A stretch of 64,000 nucleotides of DNA from Dictyostelium discoideum (lineage: Eukaryota), in contig CM000155.2 of the NCBI GenBank assembly GCA_000004695.1, forward strand, positions 1,312,001 through 1,376,000, read 5' to 3'. This document shows positions 110-64,000 of this stretch, in pieces. Position numbers and translations under genes: made by a program. Within the stretch, counting starts at the first letter, position 1, and every line of letters starts with the position of its first letter. The notes beneath the pieces were generated by a model. That model did not search any database, was not told the DNA's origin, and saw nothing but the letters and a program-made list of their open reading frames with translations.

Positions 110-8534
<8,425 letters not shown>

Positions 8535-9392: not shown

Positions 9393-9442
<50 letters not shown>

Positions 9443-9942
9443 CTTCAATTTAATAGTTTCTATTTAGATTGTCTAAATAGAGTTTTGGTTATTTTAAAAA
9501 AAGGTATGACTACTATTGTGAGAATAATTATTATAATAAATTGGTCGAAAGAGACTAGGTTTGGGAGCACTGATTTCGGAATGCAATAGACTTTGCATGT
9601 TAAGTTTCTTAAATTAATAATTTGATTGAGGAAAAAGTTTGGATCTTTGAAGTTGTTTGAGTCTTTTGAGAGAGTAATTTTAAGGTTTTAGCTTTTTTAA
9701 TAAATTCTAAAGTGGCTAATTTATACATTTGTTGAGAAGGGTTGAGAATGATAGTTTTTCTCCTATTGATGGTTCACTATACAGTTGGTTGCAAATCCAT
9801 ACTTTATGAATTATTAATGCCATGAAATTCCTATATGCGAAGGTTCTGGAAAGGTTATAGTTTACCCATTTATAACCCCAGTAATCAATTGTATAGTGAA
9901 AAACCGTCAAAAGATGAAATTCTTTTTTCCCATATCAAGCTA

Positions 9943-9953
9943 AGAATCGAACC
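9943..9953 (-). promoter_or_regulatory. extra B box (exB, GGTTCGATTCT) about 40 bp downstream of tRNA-Val
   Basis: Reverse complement of agaatcgaacc = GGTTCGATTCT, a copy of the B-box consensus. Downstream B-box copies at about 30-40 bp are a known feature of Dictyostelium tRNA genes. Confidence 0.6.
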
Positions 9954-9992
9954 TGTGATTTATTCGATATCGGATTTAAAAATATTAGTTTG

Positions 9993-10066
9993 TATTCAGA
10001 GCGGGAATCGAACCCACGACCTAATCCGTGTTAAGGATTCGTGATAACCGACTACACCATCCGAAC
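9993..10066 (-). tRNA. tRNA-Val, anticodon AAC
   Basis: The reverse complement folds as a canonical cloverleaf: GTTCGGATGGTGTAGTCGGTTATCACGAATCCTTAACACGGATTAGGTCGTGGGTTCGATTCCCGCTCTGAATA. Acceptor GTTCGGA/TCTGAAT (two G-U pairs), U8, D-arm GTGTAGTCGGTTATCAC, anticodon stem AATCC/GGATT with loop TTAACAC (AAC at positions 34-36), T-arm GTGGG-TTCGATT-CCCGC, discriminator A. It is followed on the minus strand by a T5 run (RNA polymerase III terminator) at about 9975-9985. Confidence 0.85.
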
Positions 10067-48708: not shown

Positions 48709-49622
48709 TTAATTAAAATTATTTTTTACAGATGGAGATACACCACTTTCATATAAAGAAACGATATCAATTTCTTCATCTTCAGCGCTATGATGAGCTT
48801 TTGATGGTGGATCAACTGGTGGGAAGAAAGGGGAATTTGAAGGTAAATTTGGAGTGATTGGAGTATTTAAAGTGATTGGGGTTGAAGGAGTTGAACCATT
48901 GGTATGATCTACTGATAAAAGTAGTGAGGAAGATGATTGTTTTAAATTGGTTTGTTCGATGGATTTCTCTAAATCACCAATTTGAGAATCAAAAGGTGCC
49001 AATAATTGTAGGGTACTAGTTAATAATTTTTCAGCGATTGGTAATAAATGTGAAAATCTTTTTTCGTTATATTCAAAACAATTTGCAACCATTAATTTAA
49101 TGGCATCAATGAATTGATTTTTAGATTTATATTCCCAATGTCTATTTCTATCTCTCATTGTTGTTAAATCGATTGGATTCTTGATGACCTTATGATAATC
49201 TGGTGCTAATTTTGGTGTAACTTTATGTCTAAATGCAATGAATTCATCATTGGTTCTAAGTTTATCCAATATTCTTTCAAAGATATTTGAAAGTTCAACA
49301 TCTGCACCACTACCATCCTTTCTAACTCTATTTCTACGTGATGATTTATCGCTACCATCAAGTGTTGTTGAACTAAGTGATGGTGATTCACTATTTGATT
49401 GATCCAATGTTCTTTTCTTTCTATTTGAACCACTTGATGATGCTGATAATGGTGTATTTAAAACTGATTGATCTTCAGTTCTATTATTACCACCATTAGT
49501 ATTATTACTATTACCACTATTACTACCATTATATCTAATTATAATACCGGATTGTGATAATGTTGGTGATTGATTTGTACTATTTGAAAGATTATTTGTA
49601 TTATTATTTTCATTATTATTAA

Positions 49623-49692
<70 letters not shown>

Positions 49693-52600
49693 ATTATTAT
49701 TAATATTATTAATATTATTATTATTATTATTATTAATATTATTAATATTATTGTTATTGTTATTATTATTATTAATATTATTATTATTATTGTTATTATT
49801 ATTATTATTGTTATTATTATTACTATTATTATTATTATTATGATTATTATTACTATTGTTATTGTTATTATTACTACTACTGCCACCATTATGATTTGAA
49901 TCTCTATTACTACTTGAATGATGTGATGAACTATGACTATCAGAACTACTACCTGTACTATTTCTATGATGAGAATCTCTATGATCACGACTACTACTAC
50001 TACTACCACTCGAACTATTTCTTGATCTTTCACTTCTATGCTCACGATGTTCTCTGTCACTTCTATGTTCTCTATCACCGCTTCTGTGTTCACGATGTTC
50101 TCTATCACTTCTGTGCTCTCTATCACCACTTCTATGTTCACTACTTCTATGTTCTCTGTCGCTTCTATGTTCTTTATCACCACTTCTATGTTCACTACTT
50201 CTATGTTCACTACTTCTATGTTCACTACTTCTATGTTCACTGCTTCTATGTTCTCTGTCGCCTCTATCACTGCTTCTATGCTCTCTATCGCCACTTCTAT
50301 GTTCACTACTTCTATGATGTGATGAGTGTTCACCACTTCTATGTTCACTACTTCTATGTTCACTACCTCTATGTTCGCTACTTCTATGTTCACTACTTCT
50401 ATGCTCACCACTTCTATGTTCACTACTTCTATGTTCTCTATCGCTACTTCTTGGATGGCCACTGCTTGATGAGGATGATGATGATGAAGATGAAGATTGG
50501 CCAATTCTAATTTTTGTACTTGAACTACTATTTGAATCAGAATTAGCTTGTTGATTTGGCATTACAATACTAATTCTTGTTTGATCTCTATCAGTATTAC
50601 TATTGTTATTACTACCACTACTACCAATACCACTACTTGAACTACGATGTGGTGGTATTGGTTTATTACTACTACTTGTATTTAAAGAGAAATTATTATT
50701 ATTATTATTATTATTATAATTATTATTATTTATATTTGATACTGGAATATTACCAGCACTAATATTAATCATATTTGAAGAACCAATTGTAGCACCAATA
50801 CTACTATTACTTGAATTCATATTGAATGAATCTTCTCTTTGATCATTCTTTTTTAATCTTCTTAATCTTTCTTGAATTCTTCTTCTTTGTTTTTTAGTTT
50901 CTTCATCCTCTTCATTTTGTTTTCCAAATTTCTTTCTATCTTGAAGGAATTGATCATGTTTCTTCTTTTGATAATCTTGAACTACCTTTGGATCACGAAT
51001 AATTTCAATTCTCTTAAATAAACTTCCATCTGGTTTTTGAAATAATGTAGTTCTCTTTACAAATACTCTATCACCTTGAGTAAGATCATCTTCTTCTGCC
51101 TTTGCTTTTGCTTTAGCTTTAGCTTCTTCTGCTTTTGCTTTAATCTCTTCCTCTTCTGCTTTTGCCTTGGCTTTAGCTTTAGATTCTTCATCTTTATTCT
51201 TTGTACCCATTAGTTTATTATATTCCTCTTCTTCATTATCTTCTTCTTCATCTGATTCATCACGAGAGAATAAACTTCTACTACGTTTACCAGTTGATTT
51301 ACTTGATGATTTATTATTATTATTATTTGATTGATTTTGATTTTGATTTTGATTTTGATTTTGATTTTGACTTTGATTACTATCACCAAATAAACTATCT
51401 TCAAGATCTTTTAATAAATCAGCATCTAAATCTTCATCATATAAATCATCACCTTTACCAGCGATTGCTTTAATTTGATTATCAAATACCAATTGACATT
51501 GTTCTTTATATTGTAAATTTTGATGATCTAAACTATATCTTGAACCTCTTGCAAATTTAGTCATTGCAGCATTACTATTTGAAGCCAATGCAGCCTCACT
51601 GGATTTCTTACGAACCAAATCAATTCTTTGCCAACGAGCCAATTTATTAATGGTTTCTTCATCTACACCCAATTCTAATAAAACTGTTTTAGAAGCTGAT
51701 AAAGAAAGTTTTCTTAAATCTGCATCTGTACCAGTGACTTGATTCTTTTGAAGAGCCAATTTAATTGCTTTTTGTTTTTGATTTACAACTTTTTGAGGCA
51801 TTTTCAAGTAAGAGTATTCATCTTCTCTACCGGTTGGATCATCACTAATGATTTGTAATCTACCTTTACCTTGCATAGCACTAAGGAAACTACCAGTTAA
51901 ATTCCAAGGTGTAATTGAGAGTTCATCCTCAACTGGTTTTATAGATTTCTTTATTGGATCCTCATCGTCAAGATTACCAAGAATCGTTGGAATTGTACCT
52001 GGTGCTGTGAAATGAATGATACCATTATCCTGAAGTCTTTGAAGACCAATGAGCATACTCTCGAATGAAACCACTGCCTCTGGTGTTACCAACTTTTGAA
52101 ACTCCTCTTCGGTAGGCAATGTAAAGTTATCTTTTACAGTCCACCAACCACTATCATCCCCACCACGTTGAAAATCTGCACAATCCTTTAAACGTTTTCT
52201 AATGGAAGTTTCAGATTGTGATGGAAAGGCAGAGCAGATATCAGTGATCTTTAAACGACGTTGTGGGTTACTCTTTTTCAAGAATTGTCTATAGATGTAT
52301 GCTTGAAGTCTACTCTTTAAAAACATATTGGCATTTCTAGAGTTTGGTGCAGGTACTTCAACCTCTGGTAAGATTTGACCAGCCGCATAGATTGGACCAA
52401 CATCACGAATATACCAACGTTTACCATCTCTAGATTTAACTAACAGGAAATCGGTATTGGCTGAATTATGTTTATGAATGGGTACTTTAAATAAATTATT
52501 TACAACGGATTGAATGGTTTGACCAGGATTGATGTCACCTAAAAATGGTGATTCTTCATTATTATCCAACATTACCAATTCACCATCTTCAAAATTTAAA

Positions 52601-53592
52601 TCCTTTGGTCCAGTATCATGAGTATTCTTTTTCTTATAATAATTTCTAATTCTTAAACCCATACCAACATTTGAAACTAATGGTGGATGTTGTTCTGTAT
52701 ATTCAATTAAAACTAAACGACCATCACGTGCTGATAAATCCGATTTATGTAATGATTTCTTTGATGATGAAGATGATGATGATGAAGACGACGACATCAT
52801 ACCACCATTAATACTACCTCTCATATTATGACCACCCATTATACTATTTGTACTACTATTTAAAAGTAAATTATTTGAACTTGAACTTAAATCACCACTT
52901 AAACTACCCTCTTTATTATAGATTATAATTCTAAATGGTACATTACTTGGGAATAGAATACGTGGACGATGTGCATAAATTAAATCTTCTTTGGTAAGAT
53001 GAGTTTTAACCAATGATAATTTAATACCAGGTAAAGAATGTTGAATTACGACTTTAGTTGAACCATTTGGTGGACGTGGTGGTGGTTTTCTAACTGGTCT
53101 ATAGAATTTATCATTTGAAAGATTGAATTTATCAATTTCTCTTTGAGATTGTTCACGTTCTTCACGTTCTTTTCTCTCATCTTCTTCTTTATCTTTTTGT
53201 AATTGTTCTTCGAATGACATAGTTTGACCATTGGCAGCTCTTGCAGCTGCTTGTGCTCTTTCCAATGCAGCTGCTTGTGCTGCTTGTGCTGCTTCCAATG
53301 CCAATTTCTTTTTAGATTTCTTTTTAACTGGTGCTTGTTGATCACCATTTGAACCTGATTCACCATTATTATGTTCTTTCTTTTCAATATGTTCTTCAAA
53401 ATACATTTCTCTATCATTTAAATCTAAAATTAACATTGAAACTTGTTGTATTTTCTCTGGTACCATTGATTCATCCCATATTATATTATCAATCCAATCA
53501 CCATTTTCTAATTCTTGATTCGATATTGGAAAAAGTGACCATTTATCAATATTACTTTTCATAATTTCATCAATTTCTTTATTATTATTTTG

Positions 53593-53630
<38 letters not shown>

Positions 53631-53979
53631 TATTATTACTATTATTATTATTATTATTGGTATTATTATTATTACCATTATTATTGGTTAAATTATTATT
53701 ATTTGTCGTACTATTTTTTTTATTATTTACAATTGTTTGAATATGTTGTTCATTTTGCGCTTTATCTTTATCTTTTTCTTTTTCTTTATCTTTTTCTTGT
53801 GATAATGGTTGTTGTAATAAATTTTGTGAATCTGTGTCCATTATTTCTTCTTTTTCACTAATATGATCTAATCCAAATAATTTACTACTATTATTTATAT
53901 TATTATTGTTATTTTTATTTTTATTTTTATTATTTCGTTGAGTTGTCGTAGATGTTGAAGTTGATGATAAAGTTGTTGC

Positions 53980-54033
<54 letters not shown>

Positions 54034-55727
54034 AGTTGTTGATGATGATGAAGTTTGTTTTGAATTTTTATTTAAATTTGGTGTTAAATCATTAATTTCA
54101 ACTGGCATTGTTATTGCCTCTTTAATTATAATATTTTGTTGTTGATTATCTGATGATAAATAAAATTGATTGAAATGATCAGACTTTTTAAATTTAATTA
54201 AACTTTCCTCATCCCAAATGATATTATCCTCCCAATTAACTTGTTGTAATGAATGATAATTTGAATCGGGTACCATATAAAACATTGTCATTATTTCTTC
54301 ATCCTCAGTCTCCCTAAGTGGTTCAGGTACATATTCTTCATCTTCTTCTGCTGCTGCTTGATATAATTGCATCGATGTTAATGTTGGTGTTGTCGTATTT
54401 GATGATGTTAATGTATCCTCTTCACCACCACCACCTGTTGAGCTAGTGATACCAGCATTTGATTTTAATAATTGTTTCGTTATACTATCAATTTCTGTTA
54501 TTGGTTTCTTTATAATTGAAGGTGGTGGTTGTTTTTTCGATGGTTGATTCCACAGTAAGAGTTCATCAGTTTCAATTGAATCATCATTTAATGTTTGTGG
54601 TGTTGAGAATCTAGTTTTACGTGATTTCTTTCTTGTTGGTTTATCTGGAAATTTGGGTGCAAATAATTGAGAAAACTTTAAAATGAAACCTTCCGATGAT
54701 TTACCACTAACAAATACTTTAAACTCTTGATCCTCTGGTGTAAACATTTCAGGTGTTTCAAGTATTGATTTTACAACTTCATATGAACCTGCTTTCATTG
54801 TTACCTTTTTCTTTGGTTTCTTTTCTTTATGACGACGACGATGACTACCACCACCGCCACCACCACCACCACCACCACCATCTGAATCTGAATCTGATCT
54901 TGAAGAAGATGATGAAATTGATGATCTTGAAGAAATTGAAGATCCTGATGATCTTGATGAATCAGACATTGAGTCGGATTCAATATCTGATGCTGACCTT
55001 GACATCGATGGTGATCTTGATGATGATGCTGATGATGATGCTGATGATGATGATAATGATGATGCTGATGAAATATCATCATCATCTTCATCTTCACTAC
55101 GAGTTGATTTTTGCTGTTGTTGTTCTTCTTCCTCATCAAAATCGAAATCATCAACTGATGGTTTCTTTTTAATTTGTAATGGTTGTTTTGAACCAACTTG
55201 TTTTCTTTGTTTTCTACGTTCCTTTTTCGATAATTGTCTTTGTTGTTGTTCTAAAAGTTTTAAACGTTGTTGTTCTTCACGCTCTTTATGTTGTTGTTGT
55301 AATCTTGCAATTGCAGCATTTGCAAGTTTATCCGCATTCAATTTATTGATTTCATTCTCTGTGGATTGAATTTCTTCAGCAACTTCATCAATATCCTCAT
55401 AATCTAATGCATTTTTATCGGGTACAATAACTGAATCTGTAACTGCATTCTTATCATCCTCATCAATACCAATTGTTTTTTTAAATGATATATGTTGACT
55501 ACTTTTTGCAAATAATTCTAAATCTTTTTTTAAATCCTATAATTAATAAATAATAATAATAATAATAATAATGTTAATATATATATATAAATATATATTA
55601 ATAAAAAAAAACATATTCATACTTTAAAAACTTGATCATTCTCTTCAACATCCAATTCACCAGACTCTTTAACATTACCAAAGAGGAAACCTGTTAAATT
55701 CCCTTTCTTTTCTTTATCTTTAGCCAT
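48709..55727 (-). CDS. taf1: Transcription initiation factor TFIID subunit 1 (TAF1). Exons 55623..55727 and 48709..55536. About 2310 aa.
   Basis: Exon 1 MAKDKEKKGNLTGFLFGNVKESGELDVEENDQVFK with a GTATGA donor. Exon 2 starts DLKKDLELFAKSS... after a TTATAG acceptor (phase 0, verified). Central DUF3591-type region (…RWYIRDVGPIYAAGQILPEVEVP…FLKSRLQAYIYRQF…GWWTVKDNFTLPTEEEFQKLVTPE…). C-terminal bromodomain (…FRHKVTPKLAPDYHKVIKNPIDLTTMRDRNRHWEYKSKNQFIDAIKLMVANCFEYN…). Extensive poly-N and acidic tracts. Confidence 0.85.
50030..50450 (-). repeat. coding 15-nt tandem repeat (about 28 units) inside TAF1, encoding (S/G)EHRS-type His/Arg/Ser-rich repeats
   Basis: Repeated units cacttctatgttcac / tctatgttcactact on the plus strand. 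Protein: SEHRSGEHRSSEHRSSEHRGSEHRSSEHRSGEH...DREHRSDREHREHRSGDREHRS. Confidence 0.6.
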
Positions 55728-55941
55728 GTTATTGTGTGTTTGTATTATTTATTTTATATATTGAATAACCATGTAAAAAGAAAATAAAATACCAATATAT
55801 TTATATACTATGAATATATGTATGGTGGTTGAGTGTTTGCGTTTTCTGTTTTTACTATTGTTCAATTATTTTTTTTATTTTTTATGTTTTTGTTTTTCTT
55901 ATTTGATTATGCACACTATTCGCGTGTGTAATATATGAAAT

Positions 55942-55974
<33 letters not shown>

Positions 55975-56597
55975 TTTATATTTTTTATTTTTTATTTTTT
56001 TATTTTATTTTCTATTTTATTTTATTTTATTTTATTTTAATTTTTATTTTTTTTTTTTTTTAATTTATTTTTATTTTTTTTTTTTTTTTCAAAAAAAAAA
56101 AATGAAATAAAAGGGATCGATCGTACAACCAATTGTTTTAATATATTAATTAATAAAAAAACTGAAAAAAAAAATTTAAAAAAAAATTAAAAAAAAATTT
56201 GAAATTTTTTTAAAAATTTGGGGGGCTTTAAAAACTTTTTTTTTTTTTTATTTTTTTTTTATTTTTTGCCTCCATTATTTTTTATTTTTTTTTTTTTATT
56301 TGAATTGTGTATCTTATTTTTTTATTATATACTTCATTTTATTGAGAGGTTGTAAAAATAAAAAAATAAAAAAAACAAAAGATAAAATAAAAATTAATTA
56401 ATAATTTTTGTTTTTTTATTTTTTGTGTGAATCCCTTTTAAAAATTTTCTCAAATAAACTACTTCAAAAGAATAATAATTAATTTTTTTTTTTTTTTTTT
56501 TAGTTTTTAATTTCTATTTTTATTTTTATTTTAGTTTTAATTTCTATTTTTGATTTTTAATAGTTTTAATTTATTTTAAAAATTTCGAACATCTATT

Positions 56598-56639
<42 letters not shown>

Positions 56640-56966
56640 TATAATAATATAACCTTTAATAAAATTTTAATAATTATTATATCAATATGGCAGAAAAAAG
56701 GATTTCAATTCGCCCCTTCCTCTTATCACTAAAAAAAGTAAAAATGAAATAATAAAAATAAAAAATTTTTGGAAAAAATTTGAAAAAATTTGAAAAAAAA
56801 AAAAAAAAAATTGAAAAAAAAAAAGTAAAAAAAAAAAAATAATTTCTTTATGTTGATCTGGCGACCTAGGATTAAATAATAATAATATAAATTTAGCGAT
56901 AAAATTCAAATATTAAATATACACACACTACACACAATATATATATATATTCATAGATAAAAAGAA

Positions 56967-58237
56967 ATGTCACAAACAGTATCACAACTTACCAGACAAC
57001 CAGAATTGGAAATTTTAGAAATTAAAAATGATAGTATAATATTCATTCTTTCAAATACAGATATCAGTGTTGCAAATGCACTAAGAAGAGTTATGATTGC
57101 AGAAGTACCAACAATGTGTATAGATTTAGTTGAATTTGAATCGAATAATTCTGTGCTTTGTGATGAATTTATAGCACATAGATTAGGGTTAATACCATTA
57201 GTTAGTGATAATATCGATAAATTTTGTTATACAAGAGTATATTTTATTTATTCATTACAATAATAATAATAATAATAGTAATAATAATAATAATAATAAA
57301 CAAAATCAATAATAATAATAATAAATTAAAATAAAATAATAACAACATAAACAATAATTCTATATAGGATTGCAGTTGTTCAGATAGATGTGATCAATGT
57401 AGTGTTGAACTAAGATTAAATGTTAAATGTACAGAAAATAGACCACGTGATGTTACAAGTTCAGATTTATTATCACAAAATAGTGCAGTAATTCCTGTAT
57501 CTTCACAAGTAACAAGTTCAAATAGTGAACAAGAAATTCCAATTGTAAAATTAAGAAGAGGACAAGAAATTAAATTAAGAGCAATCGCTAAAAAAGTAAT
57601 TAATTAATCAATCAATGTATAAAAAAAAAAAAAAAAAAAAAGAAAAAAGAAAAAGAATTTAAATATTCATATTTTTATATTATTTTTTTTGTTTGTTTTT
57701 TTTATTTTTATTTTTATTTTATTTTATTTTATTTTAGGGTGTAGGTAAAGAACATGCAAAATGGTCACCATCATGTGTTGCAACATATCAATTTCAACCA
57801 ATTATTGTATTAAATCAAAATAGAATAGATGAATTAACAGATCAACAAAAAGAGGAATGGGTTGGAAGTTGTCCAACCAAAGTTTACAGTTATAGTCCAC
57901 ATCAATCAACACAACAAGTAACAATCGAAGATCCATTAAGATGTGTTTATTGTTTGGAATGTAAAAAGAAAGCAGAATCATTTGGTAAACCTGATCTTGT
58001 ACATTTAGAACAAAAACAAGATAAATTCATTTTTACTGTAGAGGTAAGAACTTTTTTAAAATATACATACATACTCTATCTATCTATTATTTAAAACTGA
58101 TATTAATATTATTTTAATTTCATAATTTATAGAGTTCAGGTGCATTAAAACCAGAAGATATTGTTTTATATGCTATTCAAATTATTAAACGTAAATTAAC
58201 AGACATTCAAGGTCAAATGGCCGAAGGAATGCTTTAA
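56967..58237 (+). CDS. rpb3: DNA-directed RNA polymerase II subunit RPB3. Four exons: 56967..57236, 57368..57595, 57738..58043, 58133..58237. 302 aa.
   Basis: NTDISVANALRRVMIAEVPTMCIDLVEFESNNSVLCDEFIAHRLGLIPL (the RPB3/alpha-like dimerisation motif). The Cys cluster [36 protein letters not shown]. Donors GTATAT, GTAATT and GTAAGA. All exons are phase 0 with lengths 270/228/306/105. Confidence 0.85.
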
Positions 58238-58986
58238 ATAAATAAAAAAAAAAAAAAAAAAAAAAAAAACAAAAACAAAACAAAACAGAACAAAACAAAA
58301 CAAAAATATTATTGTTAAAAAAAAAAAAAAAGTCTAACCAGGGTTATGTTTGTCGTCAAAAAAAAGTATTGAGTTTGTGTATATGTAAATTAATGGTTTA
58401 AAAAAAAAAATAAAAAATAAAAAATAAAAGGAAATAAAGAATAAAAATTAAATTTATTAAAGTAGATTAAAATATTTTATTAATTTTTATTTTATTTAAT
58501 TTTTATTTTTTTGTTTGTTTTTTTTTAATTATTTATTTAAATTATTTTATTTATTTTATTTTATTTTTTTTTTTTCTAAACTATTCATAACATGTAATGC
58601 CGTTGTAAATGTTGAAATTTCAATTTAAAAAAAAAAAAAACTAACAAAAAAAAAAAACTAAATTAATTTTTAAAATTAATTATAACCAAATCAGGTAATG
58701 TGGTGGTTTGTAAACGATTTCTTTTTTTATTTTTTTTGTTTTGTTTTTTTTTATTTTTTATTTTTTTTTTTTATTTTTTTTTTATTTTTTTTATTTTTTT
58801 ATTTTTTTTTTTTTTGGTTTTTGTTTTTTTTTTTTTTTTTTTTTTATATTGTTTAATATCACACGACAACACAATTGTTTTTTTTTTTTAAAAATATTTT
58901 TTTTTAAACATCTAATCATAAACATTATATAATAAACAACTAACAAACAATAAAAAAAAAAAAAAGTAAGTCAAAAAAAAAAAAAA

Positions 58987-59204
58987 ATGGTAAAACAAAT
59001 GAAAATTGCTATAAGTAAGTGTCAATAATTTCATTATTTTTTATTTAATTGATAAGTTTGAATTTTTTTTTTTTGTCTGGTATTGAAAAAAAAAAAAAAA
59101 AAAAAGATATTTTTTGAAATTGAAAAAAATAAAAAAAAAAAAAATTCAAATTCGCTCATTTCCAATTTTTTTTTTTTTAAAATTTCCGCTTTTGGTTAAC
59201 CTTG

Positions 59205-59241
<37 letters not shown>

Positions 59242-60138
59242 CATAAATAAAAAATAAAAATATTTTTTTTTTTAGTTGTAACAGATGAAGTATTAGAATG
59301 TAAAAATAAAGGTGAATTTTATAGTTTATATGATAATTTTATAAAGAGATATGGATTAATTGATCAACATAATGAATTTGGTAATATTCAAGTTATAACA
59401 ACAAGATATAATGCAGTTCAAAAAGAATGGCCAACTAATCCATTATCATATGATGGTTACATTATCACTGGTAGTGCATCATCAGCCTATGATAATAATG
59501 AATGGATTATACTATTAAAAGAGAGAATCATTGAATTGGATAAACATGAAATGAAAATGTGTGGCATTTGTTTTGGACATCAAATTCTCGTTGAATCATT
59601 AGGTGGTAAAATCGAAAAGAATACCAAAGGTTGGGAACTTGGCCAACACTCAGTTCCACTCGATAAAGAAGTTTCAATCATTTTCGATAATATTATAAAC
59701 AATAAAAATAAAAATCAATTTGATAATGATGATAGTGCAAATAGTAGTAGAAGTAATTCACCAATTTTAAAATTAGATGGTGCTTCAACTCTAACACCAA
59801 CAATAACCAATGATGATAGTGTTTTATTAAAAGATAAAATTTCAATTTATCAAATTCATCAAGACCATGTTTCAATTTTACCAAGTGATATGATTTCAAT
59901 TGGATCCACTGAAAAATCAATTCAAGGTGTTTTAAAAGAATCAAAGAAACAGCCTGGTAATTTTTATATCATTTCATTTCAAGGTCATCCTGAATTCAGT
60001 TTTGATTTCATTCATTTGTTAATCAGTGACCTTCATCATGTCGGTCAAGAAATGAAAGATGTTTCCATTAAAACTTTACAACAAACAACTTGCCAACCTT
60101 GGTTATCAAATTTAGTTTTTAATTTCTTTAAAAACTGA
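58987..60138 (+). CDS. Class I glutamine amidotransferase-like protein. Two exons, 58987..59014 and 59276..60138.
   Basis: Exon 1 MVKQMKIAI with a GTAAGT donor (phase 1). TTTTTAG acceptor at 59274-75. Exon 2 carries the GATase1 nucleophile motif MCGICFGHQIL and the FQGHPEF His motif. Frame verified against the track ORF. Confidence 0.6.
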
Positions 60139-60307
60139 CCATTATCATCATCATCATCATTATCATCATTATCAAATAAAATCATATATAACACATATAA
60201 AATTAATAAATATATAAAATTTAATAAAGTTACTACCAAAAATACCATTTATAAAAAAAAAAACAAAAGAAAATATTTAAATTTAAACTTTATTTAGAAT
60301 TTAAAAA

Positions 60308-61349
60308 TTAAAATAAGTGATGGAAATCAATTGATTTTGGTGAATCATTAGTGGCTCTTGAAAATGATGTTGTTTTTGTTGATGTTTTTGTGGTTGTTTT
60401 GATAAGGTCTGGATTTGGTGTTTCATGTTCTCTATGATGATATTTTTTATTATTATTATTATTATTTAGATGTGGATTATTTTTAGTAATTCTCATTGAT
60501 GGAGCTTGTTGGTTATCACCAAAATATTCTTTATTTTCTAGTTCTTCTTCATTTGCAAATAAACCTTGTTCTTCTTTATTTTCATTTTCATCTTTTGGTT
60601 TAACATCCCAACATTGTGATGGTAATTGGAATTTATCATAATGTGGTTTATTTTCATATCTATAATAATTTAAAAGTGAGAAACCTAGATTTGATTTATC
60701 TTTGTTACCGAAATTGGCAGACATAAGGGTACATGTATCTTTTTGAATTAGAATACAAGATCTGGTTACATTGCATTGTTGTTTACCTTTGACAATCCAT
60801 ACATCAACATCGGTTTGACCAATTTTTGTAGTTCCTACTTTTTTGAATTTTGGAAGTTTATCTGGGAATGGGAATTGTAATTTCATTGCAACACAGCTTG
60901 AATTGTTTACAACATATTGGGTTTGATTTTTACCATAGGCATAGTATTGTCCCCATGTTGTGAAATTTTTTGCAACAATACCATAGTGGACATACATTTG
61001 TTGACCTTTAATATCAGCAGTAACAACACCACCTTCATAAAATGAAACTGGAATAACTCCATATGGTGTTGGGAACATAGTATTATAAGCAGACAAAGCA
61101 AATTCTGATATTTAAATTTAAAATAATAAAAAAAAAAAAAAAAAAAAAAAATTAATATGTTATTATTAATTTGTTTTTTTTAAAATATATTTTTATTTTA
61201 CCTGTATAATAACCAGTTAAATTTTTCCAACATTTATGATGTTCAAATCCTTCATCAGATTCCCAATGTGAATCATCAATTGAATTAATATCAAATGATT
61301 TAATTACTCCAACTAAAATTATTAAAAAAATTAATAATGAAACTTTCAT
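60308..61349 (-). CDS. secreted Cys-containing protein (about 311 aa), possibly ependymin-related. Two exons, 61202..61349 and 60308..61104.
   Basis: Exon 1 MKVSLLIFLIILVGVIKS signal peptide ...CWKNLTGYYTG with a GTAAAA donor (phase 1). AATATCAG acceptor. Exon 2 EFALSAYNTMFPTPYGV... with spaced Cys residues and an N/K-rich tail. Family assignment is weak. Confidence 0.55.
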
Positions 61350-62084
61350 TCTTATAAATTATTTTAAATTATAATGAAAAAGAAAAAAAAAATGTTAATT
61401 ATTTATATCACCAAAAATATTTTAATAATAAAAAAAAAAAAAAAAAAAAAAATTAAAATTAAATATAGTTTTGTTTGGGGTTAACATAAGTGGTTATAAA
61501 CCCCATTTTTTAGAAAAAAAAACAAAATAAATAAAAAAAAAATAATAATCATTTTTTTTTTTTAATGTTTTAATGTAACCACCATCTTATATTTTCAAAT
61601 AATAATCAGAGTTTTTTTTTTTTCCTTTTTTAAATTTTAGTATTTTTAATTGGGAAAAAAAAAAAAGGTTTGGAATGGCAAAAAAAAAAGAATAAAGTTT
61701 TTGTTAATTAAAAATTCTTTCTTACTTTATTTTTTATTTTTTAATTTACTTTCAAATATTTATTTGATAAATGCCAATTATTTCCAGAGCTTACACAAAT
61801 TAAAATTGTATTTTTTAATTTTTATTTTTTATTATTTTTGTTTTTTTTTTTTTTTTTGTTCTTTAAATTTATATATAAAATTCACTTATATTTATTAATT
61901 AATTAATTTAATATTATGAGATTTATTAAAATAATTAAGTATACATGTTAATGAATTAATAAATAATCAATAGTTATTATAAGTAATGAAAACACTTTTG
62001 AAAAATTATTTTTTTTTGTTTTTAATGTGGAATAAAATTTTTTTGCGAGGTGAGCAACCTATTTTCGATCGAAAAATATAAAAA

Positions 62085-62157
62085 GCTCGATTAGCTCAGT
62101 CGGCAGAGCGTGGTGCTAATAACGCCACGGTCGCAGGTTCGATCCCTGCATCGAGCA
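62085..62157 (+). tRNA. tRNA-Ile, anticodon AAU
   Basis: GCTCGATTAGCTCAGTCGGCAGAGCGTGGTGCTAATAACGCCACGGTCGCAGGTTCGATCCCTGCATCGAGCA. Perfect 7-bp acceptor GCTCGAT/ATCGAGC, anticodon stem TGGTG/CGCCA with loop CTAATAA (AAT), T-arm GCAGG-TTCGATC-CCTGC. T4 terminator immediately 3'. Confidence 0.9.
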
Positions 62158-62189
62158 AGCATTTTCTTAAAATTCATAAAAACATCGTT

Positions 62190-62200
62190 GGTTCGATTCC
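62190..62200 (+). promoter_or_regulatory. extra B box (exB, GGTTCGATTCC) 33 bp downstream of tRNA-Ile
   Basis: Exact B-box-like motif seen in sequence; known Dictyostelium tRNA-gene feature. Confidence 0.6.
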
Positions 62201-62346
62201 GAGAGAAAAAACTAAGAAATAAACGAGAATTTATACATATAATAAATAAATCACTGTTATATCTTCACCGCCACATTCATTCCTCTTAATTTTACCCTAT
62301 TTTTGCTCATTAAAGAAAGGGCTATCGTCCTATATACTTTTCAACA

Positions 62347-63555
62347 ATGGCTGATGATCACTCAACTGAATTACAGTTAAATCATACAGATAACAACACA
62401 ACCAATACAAATAATACCTTCACAACCTCAACAACAAAAAACAAAAGTGTAAAAATCGACACACCTAAAAAACAAACCCCAACAAACCAACTTTTACTAA
62501 ACAAAGGACTTGATAATCAATTAGATATCATTGCACCTCCATCAATCACAAGACCACTCTCTTTCTTAGAAAAAAACAATAACACCATCAACATTAAGTG
62601 TTACTTTAATCAACCACTCATCCGTGAAGAATTAACCTCAAAAGATGACACAAGAATTCAACAAATTCACAAAAACATTCACAAACTCTTCGAAGATATA
62701 CTGTCGCCATCAGCATTCAAAATAATTGGTGCAACTGCCTTCGTAAATTGCAACGTTGATAAATTAACTTCAATAATCAACCTTCAAAACCAACTTGCAC
62801 TAAATATCGACAAACTCAACTATAGATTCGATATATCATCAAATGATTATGCAATCATTAAAACATTCATTAAAACGTACTCACCCAAACATGCAAACGA
62901 TGCAATTACAAACAACCTCACTAAATTCACCAGTTGTACATCAATTGAATCATTTACTGTCACATACTCATATGCTGTTGCGTTTAAAAGCTACATTATA
63001 ACATATCATCTAATTGATCACACACACAACATTGTTGATCAAAAGATCGAACAACCATCTGGTATCACAAGATATATCAAAGCTGCAACACGTAGTGTCA
63101 CTAAACACAAAATTCAACATGCAAAAAATGCAGATATGGCAACAACTATAAAAAATGCCATCACAAACCCAAACATGAACAAAAACAATCAACCACCAAA
63201 AAACAACATTAACACCCCACCAATCAACGAAATTGCAAATTCCAATCGCAATAATAACTCACTTCAAAATAGTGGTTCAAAAGCTATACTAAATGAATCA
63301 CTTGATATTAACAATCAATCCCAAAACAATAATGAAATTTCACACAAAAGTGATTCTTCAAATAATAATAACGGGAAAAACTCATTATCAATGAGCAATC
63401 CAACCGATCCAACAATTGTACCACAAAAACCTCTACAATCTCAACCAAACAAACCAAGTGCACCAACTCCAAATACAATAAATACAAGAAGAAGCAGCAA
63501 TGCCCTGACTACACAACCAGTCAATACTGGTGCTGCCAAACCTAGTAAGGTATGA
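62347..63555 (+). CDS. retrotransposon ORF1 (402 aa, T/N/P-rich nucleic-acid-binding protein)
   Basis: Intact ORF from ATG (62347) to TGA (63553-55). Composition and codon usage are unlike host genes (more C, fewer A/T at third positions). Confidence 0.7.
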   Translation: MADDHSTELQLNHTDNNTTNTNNTFTTSTTKNKSVKIDTPKKQTPTNQLLLNKGLDNQLDIIAPPSITRPLSFLEKNNNTINIKCYFNQPLIREELTSKDDTRIQQIHKNIHKLFEDILSPSAFKIIGATAFVNCNVDKLTSIINLQNQLALNIDKLNYRFDISSNDYAIIKTFIKTYSPKHANDAITNNLTKFTSCTSIESFTVTYSYAVAFKSYIITYHLIDHTHNIVDQKIEQPSGITRYIKAATRSVTKHKIQHAKNADMATTIKNAITNPNMNKNNQPPKNNINTPPINEIANSNRNNNSLQNSGSKAILNESLDINNQSQNNNEISHKSDSSNNNNGKNSLSMSNPTDPTIVPQKPLQSQPNKPSAPTPNTINTRRSSNALTTQPVNTGAAKPSKV

Positions 63556-64000
63556 GCTCAAAAATCAACTTTATAACATGGAATTGTAGAGGATTCACTG
63601 AAAACCCAAACAATCAACACAATTCCTACCAAAAAGCTGTTGACACACTACAACTACTTATTTCAAAACTTCCACCTCGTCCAACAATCTCAATACTCAC
63701 TGAACTCAATTCATCACCATTACAACTTAAACATGATTTTCCCGATCACATCATCTCTGTCACCAAACGAGGAAATGGTGTAATCATCATTAACCATAAC
63801 CCAAACACACTCAAACTCAAACACATATCAACAATTGATGGTAGAGCTATTTTAGCAGACGTTATATTTCCAAATCAATTACCAATTGGTATTCTTGGAA
63901 TTTACGCACCAGCATCAAATAATACCATCAAAAAGAATTCATATGCAACTTCACTACAAACACTTCTCCACAACCACTCAACAAACCCAATACCAAACCA
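63552..64000 (+). CDS. retrotransposon ORF2, N-terminal apurinic-endonuclease domain (partial, runs off the window)
   Basis: The ATG at 63552 overlaps the ORF1 stop (ATGA). MSSKINFITWNCRGFTENP...GRAILADVIFPNQLPIGILGIYAPASNN are typical APE-domain motifs of non-LTR ORF2 proteins. Confidence 0.7.
   Translation, partial: MSSKINFITWNCRGFTENPNNQHNSYQKAVDTLQLLISKLPPRPTISILTELNSSPLQLKHDFPDHIISVTKRGNGVIIINHNPNTLKLKHISTIDGRAILADVIFPNQLPIGILGIYAPASNNTIKKNSYATSLQTLLHNHSTNPIPN

Follow-up and report, generated by a model that had tools for sequence, protein, structure and literature searches.

We analysed a stretch of 64,000 nucleotides of Dictyostelium discoideum DNA (positions 1,312,001 to 1,376,000 of the forward strand of contig CM000155.2, assembly GCA_000004695.1; the whole stretch is called the window below), at whose end a tRNA-Ile(AAU) gene is followed by a retrotransposon without long terminal repeats (LTRs). 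The first 1,800 bp of this element, as delimited by its target-site duplication and by empty sites in other strains, lie at 62201-64000 on the plus strand and run off the window end. The element is very probably a near-full-length TRE3, most likely TRE3-B, a tRNA-targeted retrotransposon of the L1 clade, present in strain AX4 as gene model DDB_G0292260 and inserted 43 bp past the tRNA-Ile(AAU) gene.

The tRNA-Ile locus and the inserted element

The tRNA-Ile(AAU) gene (anticodon AAT in the DNA) was called by ARAGORN at 62085-62157 on the plus strand, and matched Rfam family RF00005 with 64.1 bits (E 1.3e-11). Its internal B box, GGTTCGATCCC, was read from the sequence at 62136-62146 (+). Beginning 5 nt past the 3′ end of the gene there is a TTTT run (62162-62165, +, also read from the sequence) which, going by the general biology of RNA polymerase III (Pol III), is likely to be the terminator. 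A perfect B-box-type motif, GGTTCGATTCC, is located 32 nt past the tRNA 3′ end at 62190-62200 (+). It was detected by a pattern search in which GGTTCRANTCC gave three matches in the window, against 0.11 expected by chance. Such a motif, the external B box (exB), accompanies about 80% of the tRNA genes of D. discoideum according to published work (PMC5911963).

The element and the tRNA-Ile gene are on the same (+) strand, with the 5′ end of the element facing the tRNA. The same locus in a second D. discoideum assembly (GCA_054883475.1), contained in sequence L007, extends past the window end and is 99.78% identical to window positions 52000-64000 over 12 kb. There, the element terminates in a run of 15 adenines (A15), directly followed by TCATAAAACGATCGTTGGTTCGATTCC, which is identical at 25 of 27 positions to TCATAAAAACATCGTTGGTTCGATTCC, the 5′ copy of a 27-bp target-site duplication at 62174-62200 (+). 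Two further D. discoideum assemblies (L008 and L009) carry the same tRNA-Ile gene with a single copy of the 27-mer and no element, and this single copy runs directly into the sequence that trails the 3′ copy of the duplication in L007. Comparison of the empty alleles (L008, L009) with the filled one (L007) thus proves the insertion and fixes the start of the element at 62201, the junction 62200/62201 lying 43 bp past the tRNA 3′ end at 62157. The insertion is therefore polymorphic among strains, being absent from two of them. L007 also carries a 38-bp extra segment (GGGGTATCTAATCCCACC…) which is absent from the empty alleles.

The 27-bp duplication holds the entire exB box, so that the tRNA gene keeps its exB while a second copy of the box follows the poly(A) tail of the element. 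We also considered that exB might be part of the 5′ end of the element itself, because in one other copy of the family (copy 1 of the L006 tandem, see below) a B-box-like motif stands between the apparent duplication and the 5′ end; at the tRNA-Ile locus this was excluded by the empty-site alleles.

The base composition changes from about position 62200, beyond which GC content is 31-37%, up from about 15%, and GC skew lies between −0.35 and −0.5. The sense strand of the element consists of 42.5% A, 24.3% C, 9.2% G and 24.1% T (33.5% GC, GC skew about −0.45), whereas the adjacent intergenic DNA has 14.6% GC, and the host exons in the window have about 30% GC without such a skew. The 5′ untranslated region (UTR) of 146 nt (62201-62346, +) was compared with that of seven other copies of the family (L005, two in L006, and L011-L014). 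Its first 13 nt, GAGAGAAAAAACT, stand in place of about 30 nt of the family consensus 5′ terminus, GAAAAAACGAAAAAAAAACCGAAAAAACAAAG. The longest 5′ ends of the family agree on GAAAAAACGAAAAAAAAACCGAAAAAACAAAGAAATAAACGAG where the window copy reads GAGAGAAAAAACTAAGAAATAAACGAG, and about 20 nt of its 5′ terminus are thus missing.

Two open reading frames (ORFs) were read in the element. ORF1 (62347-63555, +), named 'gag' in GenBank, is intact and encodes 402 amino acids (aa). The start codon of ORF2 overlaps the TGA of ORF1 within ATGA at 63552-63555 (+), ORF2 being in the −1 frame. The N-terminal part of ORF2, which starts with MSSKINFITWNCRGF, is open for 149 codons up to the window end (63552-64000, +) and corresponds to the first half of the APE (apurinic/apyrimidinic endonuclease) domain, with N11 in ITWNCRGF and E51 in LTELN. 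Against Pfam Exo_endo_phos, this fragment gave an E value of 4.9e-4, below the cut-off because the window end truncates it.

In L007, the element (99.83% identical to the window copy over 1,800 bp) measures 5,304 bp. A 5′ UTR of 146 nt precedes ORF1 (402 aa), which is joined through the ATGA overlap to an intact ORF2 (1,275 aa), and a 3′ UTR of 110 nt and the A15 tail follow. Pfam analysis of the full-length ORF2 of the family identified Exo_endo_phos at residues 8-231 (E 1.2e-12) and RVT_1 at residues 502-732; the FADD box is found at residue 684, and residues 1056-1075 form a CX2CX10HX4C (CCHC) motif. ORF2 thus has the features expected for the L1 clade, namely APE at the N-terminus, a FADD box in the reverse transcriptase (RT) and a CCHC motif towards the C-terminus, and its distant matches were APE-RT-zf-RVT proteins at 25-27% identity. 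The organization is also that of a TRE3: two ORFs, the order APE, RT and zinc finger in ORF2 (the start of APE seen in the window, RT and CCHC in L007 and the family ORF2) and, in L007, the A15 tail and the 27-bp target-site duplication without LTRs. Within the element, the window and L007 differ at only three positions, 62420, 62493 and 62495, clustered within 76 bp of ORF1; at each the window has T where L007 and the family consensus have C, resulting in S25F, one third-position change and S50L. These could be real C-to-T mutations or reference errors.

Most of what an earlier note on this DNA had described was borne out by these analyses, namely the tRNA-Ile(AAU) gene with its exB (ARAGORN, Rfam and B-box pattern search), the intact ORF1 of 402 aa, the ATGA overlap, the APE signature ITWNCRGF at the opening of ORF2 (Pfam Exo_endo_phos) and the compositional contrast with host DNA. 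The note had placed the element start just past exB and in the same orientation as the tRNA, which held, and within about 60-190 bp of the tRNA 3′ end, a distance that the target-site duplication and the empty alleles correct to 43 bp. The duplication that was sought at the 5′ boundary was found (27 bp, 62174-62200), and an RT is present downstream in ORF2, both in DDB_G0292260 (residues 13-912) and in the intact 1,275-aa ORF2 of L007. The C-module that the note expected turned out not to be a feature of TRE3, the A/B/C modules belonging to TRE5 (PMC5633606, PMC5911963).

The deduced proteins were already represented in the databases. ORF1 was identical at 398 of 402 residues to a D. discoideum 'gag' protein (AAD43056.1 / Q9Y1H6), and all 149 residues of the ORF2 N-terminus were identical to 'pol' (AAD43057.1 / Q9Y1H5) and to DDB_G0291958, both of 1,275 aa; the L007 ORF2 showed three substitutions compared to AAD43057.1. 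AAD43056.1 and AAD43057.1 are named only 'gag' and 'pol', and the records as read carry no TRE3 label. The AX4 model DDB_G0292260 ('partial', 1,264 aa) shows all four ORF1 substitutions specific to the window and spans ORF2 residues 13-912 with 896 of 900 residues identical, including the whole RT domain. A neighbouring host gene at 60308-61349 (−) encodes a spliced product identical to DDB_G0292248 of AX4, and DDB_G0292260 is the next RefSeq protein. Judged by these sequence identities, the window copy is the AX4 gene model DDB_G0292260, already annotated, though poorly.

At this locus, the publicly available gene models are artefacts. DDB_G0292260 has an N-terminus (…SRLAQSAERGANNATVAGSIPASSKHFLKIHKNIV…) that results from translating right across the tRNA-Ile gene and exB. 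The 1,596-aa models of GCA_054883475.1 were rejected as real proteins, as they are gene-model fusions in which ORF1 is spliced to ORF2 across ATGA. Exact-protein look-ups returned no record for the ORF1 of the window or of AX4. A phmmer search of ORF1 against 1.84 billion representative proteins gave matches only within its own family, Pfam gave only one spurious sub-threshold match, and a single-sequence AlphaFold2 model was uninformative (mean pLDDT of 33). The lack of ORF1 relatives outside its own family agrees with the literature, in which the ORF1 proteins of TREs are unrelated to one another.

Family assignment and position at tRNA genes

Published consensus lengths (PMC5006619 Table 1) are 5,229 bp for TRE3-A (67 copies) and 5,279 bp for TRE3-B (43 copies, nine of them full length), while the TRE3-C consensus measures 4,734 bp and TRE3-D has only a partial consensus of 1,559 bp (PMC5006619). 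Without poly(A), members of the window family measured from 5,289 bp (L007) to about 5,303 bp (L014), that is, 10-24 bp off the TRE3-B consensus and 60-74 bp too long for TRE3-A. A second family in the same genome measured about 5,233 bp, compared to 5,229 bp for the TRE3-A consensus. Its ORF2 was 41% identical to that of the window family, its ORF1 was unrelated (416 aa vs 402 aa), and its protein cluster was the larger one (79 members vs 13+29). Moreover, this second family has no ORF2 ATG beside the ORF1 stop, which agrees with the published requirement of TRE3-A for a −1 frameshift to produce ORF2 (PMC5911963). The most economical assignment is that the window family is TRE3-B and the second family TRE3-A, and we consider it probable.

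That the element is instead TRE3-A (Tdd-3) is unlikely. TRE3-A is the commonest TRE3, and our comparison was made without a labelled consensus sequence, against deposited records named only 'gag' and 'pol'. Length argues against it, given that the other family is the one that fits TRE3-A, and so does the size of the protein clusters. The other family is also the one without an ORF2 ATG at the ORF1 stop, whereas the window family cannot frameshift (see below). In addition, the publication of Tdd-3 dates from 1998 and the paper on further TRE3 elements from 1999, and Tdd-3 stands apart from the 1999 deposition series.

Compared with the known elements, the copy described here shares with TRE3-B (Szafranski et al. 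1999) the downstream position at 43 bp, the orientation, the two ORFs, the APE-RT-zinc finger order, the poly(A) tail, the duplication and the length of about 5.29 kb. Nothing substantive differs, apart from the roughly 20 nt shorter 5′ terminus, the four ORF1 substitutions and the long, exB-containing duplication of this copy. With TRE3-A it has in common the downstream targeting in the same orientation, the domain order of ORF2 and the poly(A) tail, but TRE3-A is reported to require a −1 frameshift for ORF2, whereas ORF2 of the window element begins at an AUG of its own, and a stop codon is located 6 nt upstream of it. TRE5-A (DRE) belongs to the same TRE superfamily (L1 clade, targeting of Pol III genes), and the architecture of its ORF2 is the same, but its insertions are oriented opposite to the tRNA gene and lie about 50 bp upstream of it, and its UTRs are of the modular A/B/C type; the window element, by contrast, is inserted downstream, in the orientation of the tRNA gene.

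It is highly improbable that the element belongs to TRE3-C, TRE3-D, TRE5 or the LTR element Skipper-2 and is found downstream of a tRNA gene by chance. All of these do cluster at tRNA genes (PMC5006619), but the position, orientation and A/B/C modules of TRE5 do not agree with those observed, and the consensus of TRE3-C, at 4,734 bp, and the 1,559-bp partial one of TRE3-D do not fit; a candidate TRE3-C family had an ORF2 with only 35% identity. Skipper-2 has LTRs and an integrase, whereas the window element has APE, RT and CCHC, a poly(A) tail and no LTR.

Targeting was evaluated by means of the other family copies. Six of the seven were found behind tRNA genes called by ARAGORN (Thr, Lys, Leu, Thr and Leu-like), in the same orientation as the tRNA. 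The 5′ junctions of these six were 25-70 bp past the tRNA, several of them at or beside a B-box-like motif. Published distances to the tRNA gene are 34-188 bp for TRE3-B and 14-228 bp for TRE3-A (PMC5006619 Table 1), with 14-305 bp (about 100 bp) for TRE3 overall (PMC5006619), and TRE3 elements are known to take the orientation of the tRNA gene and to use the B box or exB (PMC5911963). The 43 bp observed at tRNA-Ile lie inside the TRE3-B range. That the juxtaposition with the tRNA is coincidental or a product of rearrangement, rather than of targeted integration, is the least credible reading of all: nothing specific speaks for it beyond the occurrence of tandem TRE arrays and recombination at such loci, and it is contradicted by the clean empty site in two strains, by the filled allele with its 27-bp duplication and poly(A) junction, and by the six copies behind different tRNA genes. 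Both the TRE3-type identity suggested in the earlier note and its view that the position fits the preference of downstream-targeting TRE3 elements are therefore supported; the proteins are 99-100% identical to D. discoideum gag and pol records whose names carry no TRE3 label.

Several further observations were made at the loci used for comparison and elsewhere in the window. Tandem TRE arrays are known from the literature, and in L006 (5800-5870 and 11140-11260) two TRE3-B copies stand in tandem behind tRNA-Lys. There, an apparent target-site duplication of 17 bp is separated from the 5′ end of copy 1 by the B-box-like motif GGTTCAAATCCCAG, and an outer duplication, ACTATATTTTTAG, brackets both copies; two successive insertions or an unequal crossover may have produced this tandem. 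Extreme deletion derivatives adjoin full-length copies in L005 (12017-12086), in L006 (11175-11206) and in the 3′ flank of L013. In one of them, a 'mini' element, about 25 nt from the 5′ end of TRE3-B are joined to 14 nt from its 3′ end and to poly(A). Two stubs independent of each other, each of about 15 nt (ACACCGCTTTTAGGT and poly(A)), resemble the 3′ tip of another TRE family. The other tRNA gene of the window, tRNA-Val(AAC) at 9992-10066 (−), has an exB-like box, GGTTCGATTCT, at 9943-9953, 38 nt past the tRNA. About 128 bp downstream of it, in the same orientation, there is a 5′-truncated TRE3-like 3′ fragment (9397-9864, −) which shares 68% identity with the 3′ end of the TRE3-A-like family and terminates in a poly(A) run of 42 nt. 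The third match to GGTTCRANTCC, at 48887-48897, is a chance match inside a long host ORF (48709-55341, −; more than 2,200 aa) that is rich in homopolymers and simple repeats, contains a SEHR-type repeat block and is unrelated to the element.

Translation of ORF2 and a proposed model of integration

The frame of ORF2 carries a TAA at 63546, 6 nt upstream of its ATG, and a search for a slippery heptamer that could support a frameshift between ORF1 and ORF2 found none. A −1 frameshift fusion of both ORFs was therefore excluded, since translation in the ORF2 frame would meet this stop codon before the AUG. The ORF2 protein would most likely be produced by termination-reinitiation at AUGA. In the Bombyx non-LTR element SART1, as Kojima and colleagues are said to have reported in 2005, an overlap of ORF1 stop and ORF2 start suggests termination-reinitiation at UAAUG. 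A stop/start overlap is common to SART1 and the window element, UAAUG in the former and AUGA in the latter.

In the integration model that we propose, a bicistronic RNA would first yield the ORF1 protein and then, by termination-reinitiation or some other internal initiation at AUGA, the ORF2 protein. By analogy with TRE5-A, and in line with the literature on B-box dependence, the TRE3 ribonucleoprotein would be guided to the Pol III factor complex, with TFIIIC bound to the B box or to exB. APE would then nick the bottom strand between +16 and +17 past the tRNA, and the poly(A) tail would serve to prime cDNA synthesis (target-primed reverse transcription). A top-strand cut would lie 27 nt further, at +43/+44, right at the 3′ end of exB; bottom- and top-strand cuts at these two positions account for a 27-bp duplication.

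The insertion created a second, tRNA-less exB 5.3 kb downstream. The proposal that this orphan exB, if bound by TFIIIC, regenerates a TRE target, together with ORF2 translation by AUGA termination-reinitiation instead of the −1 frameshift usually cited for TREs, is a doubtful one as a whole. A TRE3-A-like element is indeed found in L007 (about 2300-3790, −), 5.3-6.8 kb past the window end, with an ORF1 beginning MNSYADAAK…. It starts about 55 bp past the second exB copy, forming a TRE-TRE tandem, and in pre-insertion coordinates it is about 98 bp downstream of tRNA-Ile. Past it, L007 contains a gene with integrase domains, presumably part of an LTR element. In the empty-site strains (L008, L009), a different, truncated TRE3-like fragment occupies the junction where L007 has the TRE3-A-like element. 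This element probably predates the insertion at tRNA-Ile and, because its junction coincides with that of the fragment in the empty-site strains, is not evidence for targeting to the orphan exB.

Age, activity and significance of the copy

The suggestion in the earlier note that the copy is recent or possibly active is reasonably supported by sequence comparison. The insertion is absent from two strains, ORF1 is intact, as is ORF2 in the sister assembly, and the window element is 99.5% identical to other copies of the family (Logan contigs L001-L004).

Several points weigh against the reading of the element as an intact, targeted TRE3-B copy. The TRE3-B label is based on length, copy number and indirect clues and not on a labelled consensus sequence. 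The 27-bp duplication contains two mismatches and is longer than the 9-13 bp found at five other copies of the family. For TRE3, TFIIIC-guided targeting and termination-reinitiation are both steps that we infer. The four amino acid changes in ORF1 or the roughly 20 nt shorter 5′ end could impair activity; together with the three C-to-T differences in ORF1 (62420, 62493 and 62495), private to the window with respect to the sister assembly, they count against a recent or active copy or make it less certain. Finally, the 3′ two-thirds of the element are outside the window, and DDB_G0292260 is 'partial' and ends at ORF2 residue 912, beyond which the AX4 copy would be intact to judge from L007.

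The element is already known: it is of a well-described kind, and the type of site that it occupies in the AX4 reference genome of D. discoideum is known as well. The importance of these results beyond annotation is slight. The base-pair boundaries and the empty-site alleles identify it as a strain-polymorphic, apparently intact TRE3 copy and a candidate active element. The presence of exB inside the duplication documents that the two strands can be cut on either side of the presumed binding site of TFIIIC, and the sequence on its own establishes that ORF2 of this subfamily, most likely TRE3-B, cannot arise as a frameshift fusion. If the orphan exB binds TFIIIC, each such insertion would regenerate its own target, which would help to explain TRE-TRE tandem arrays.

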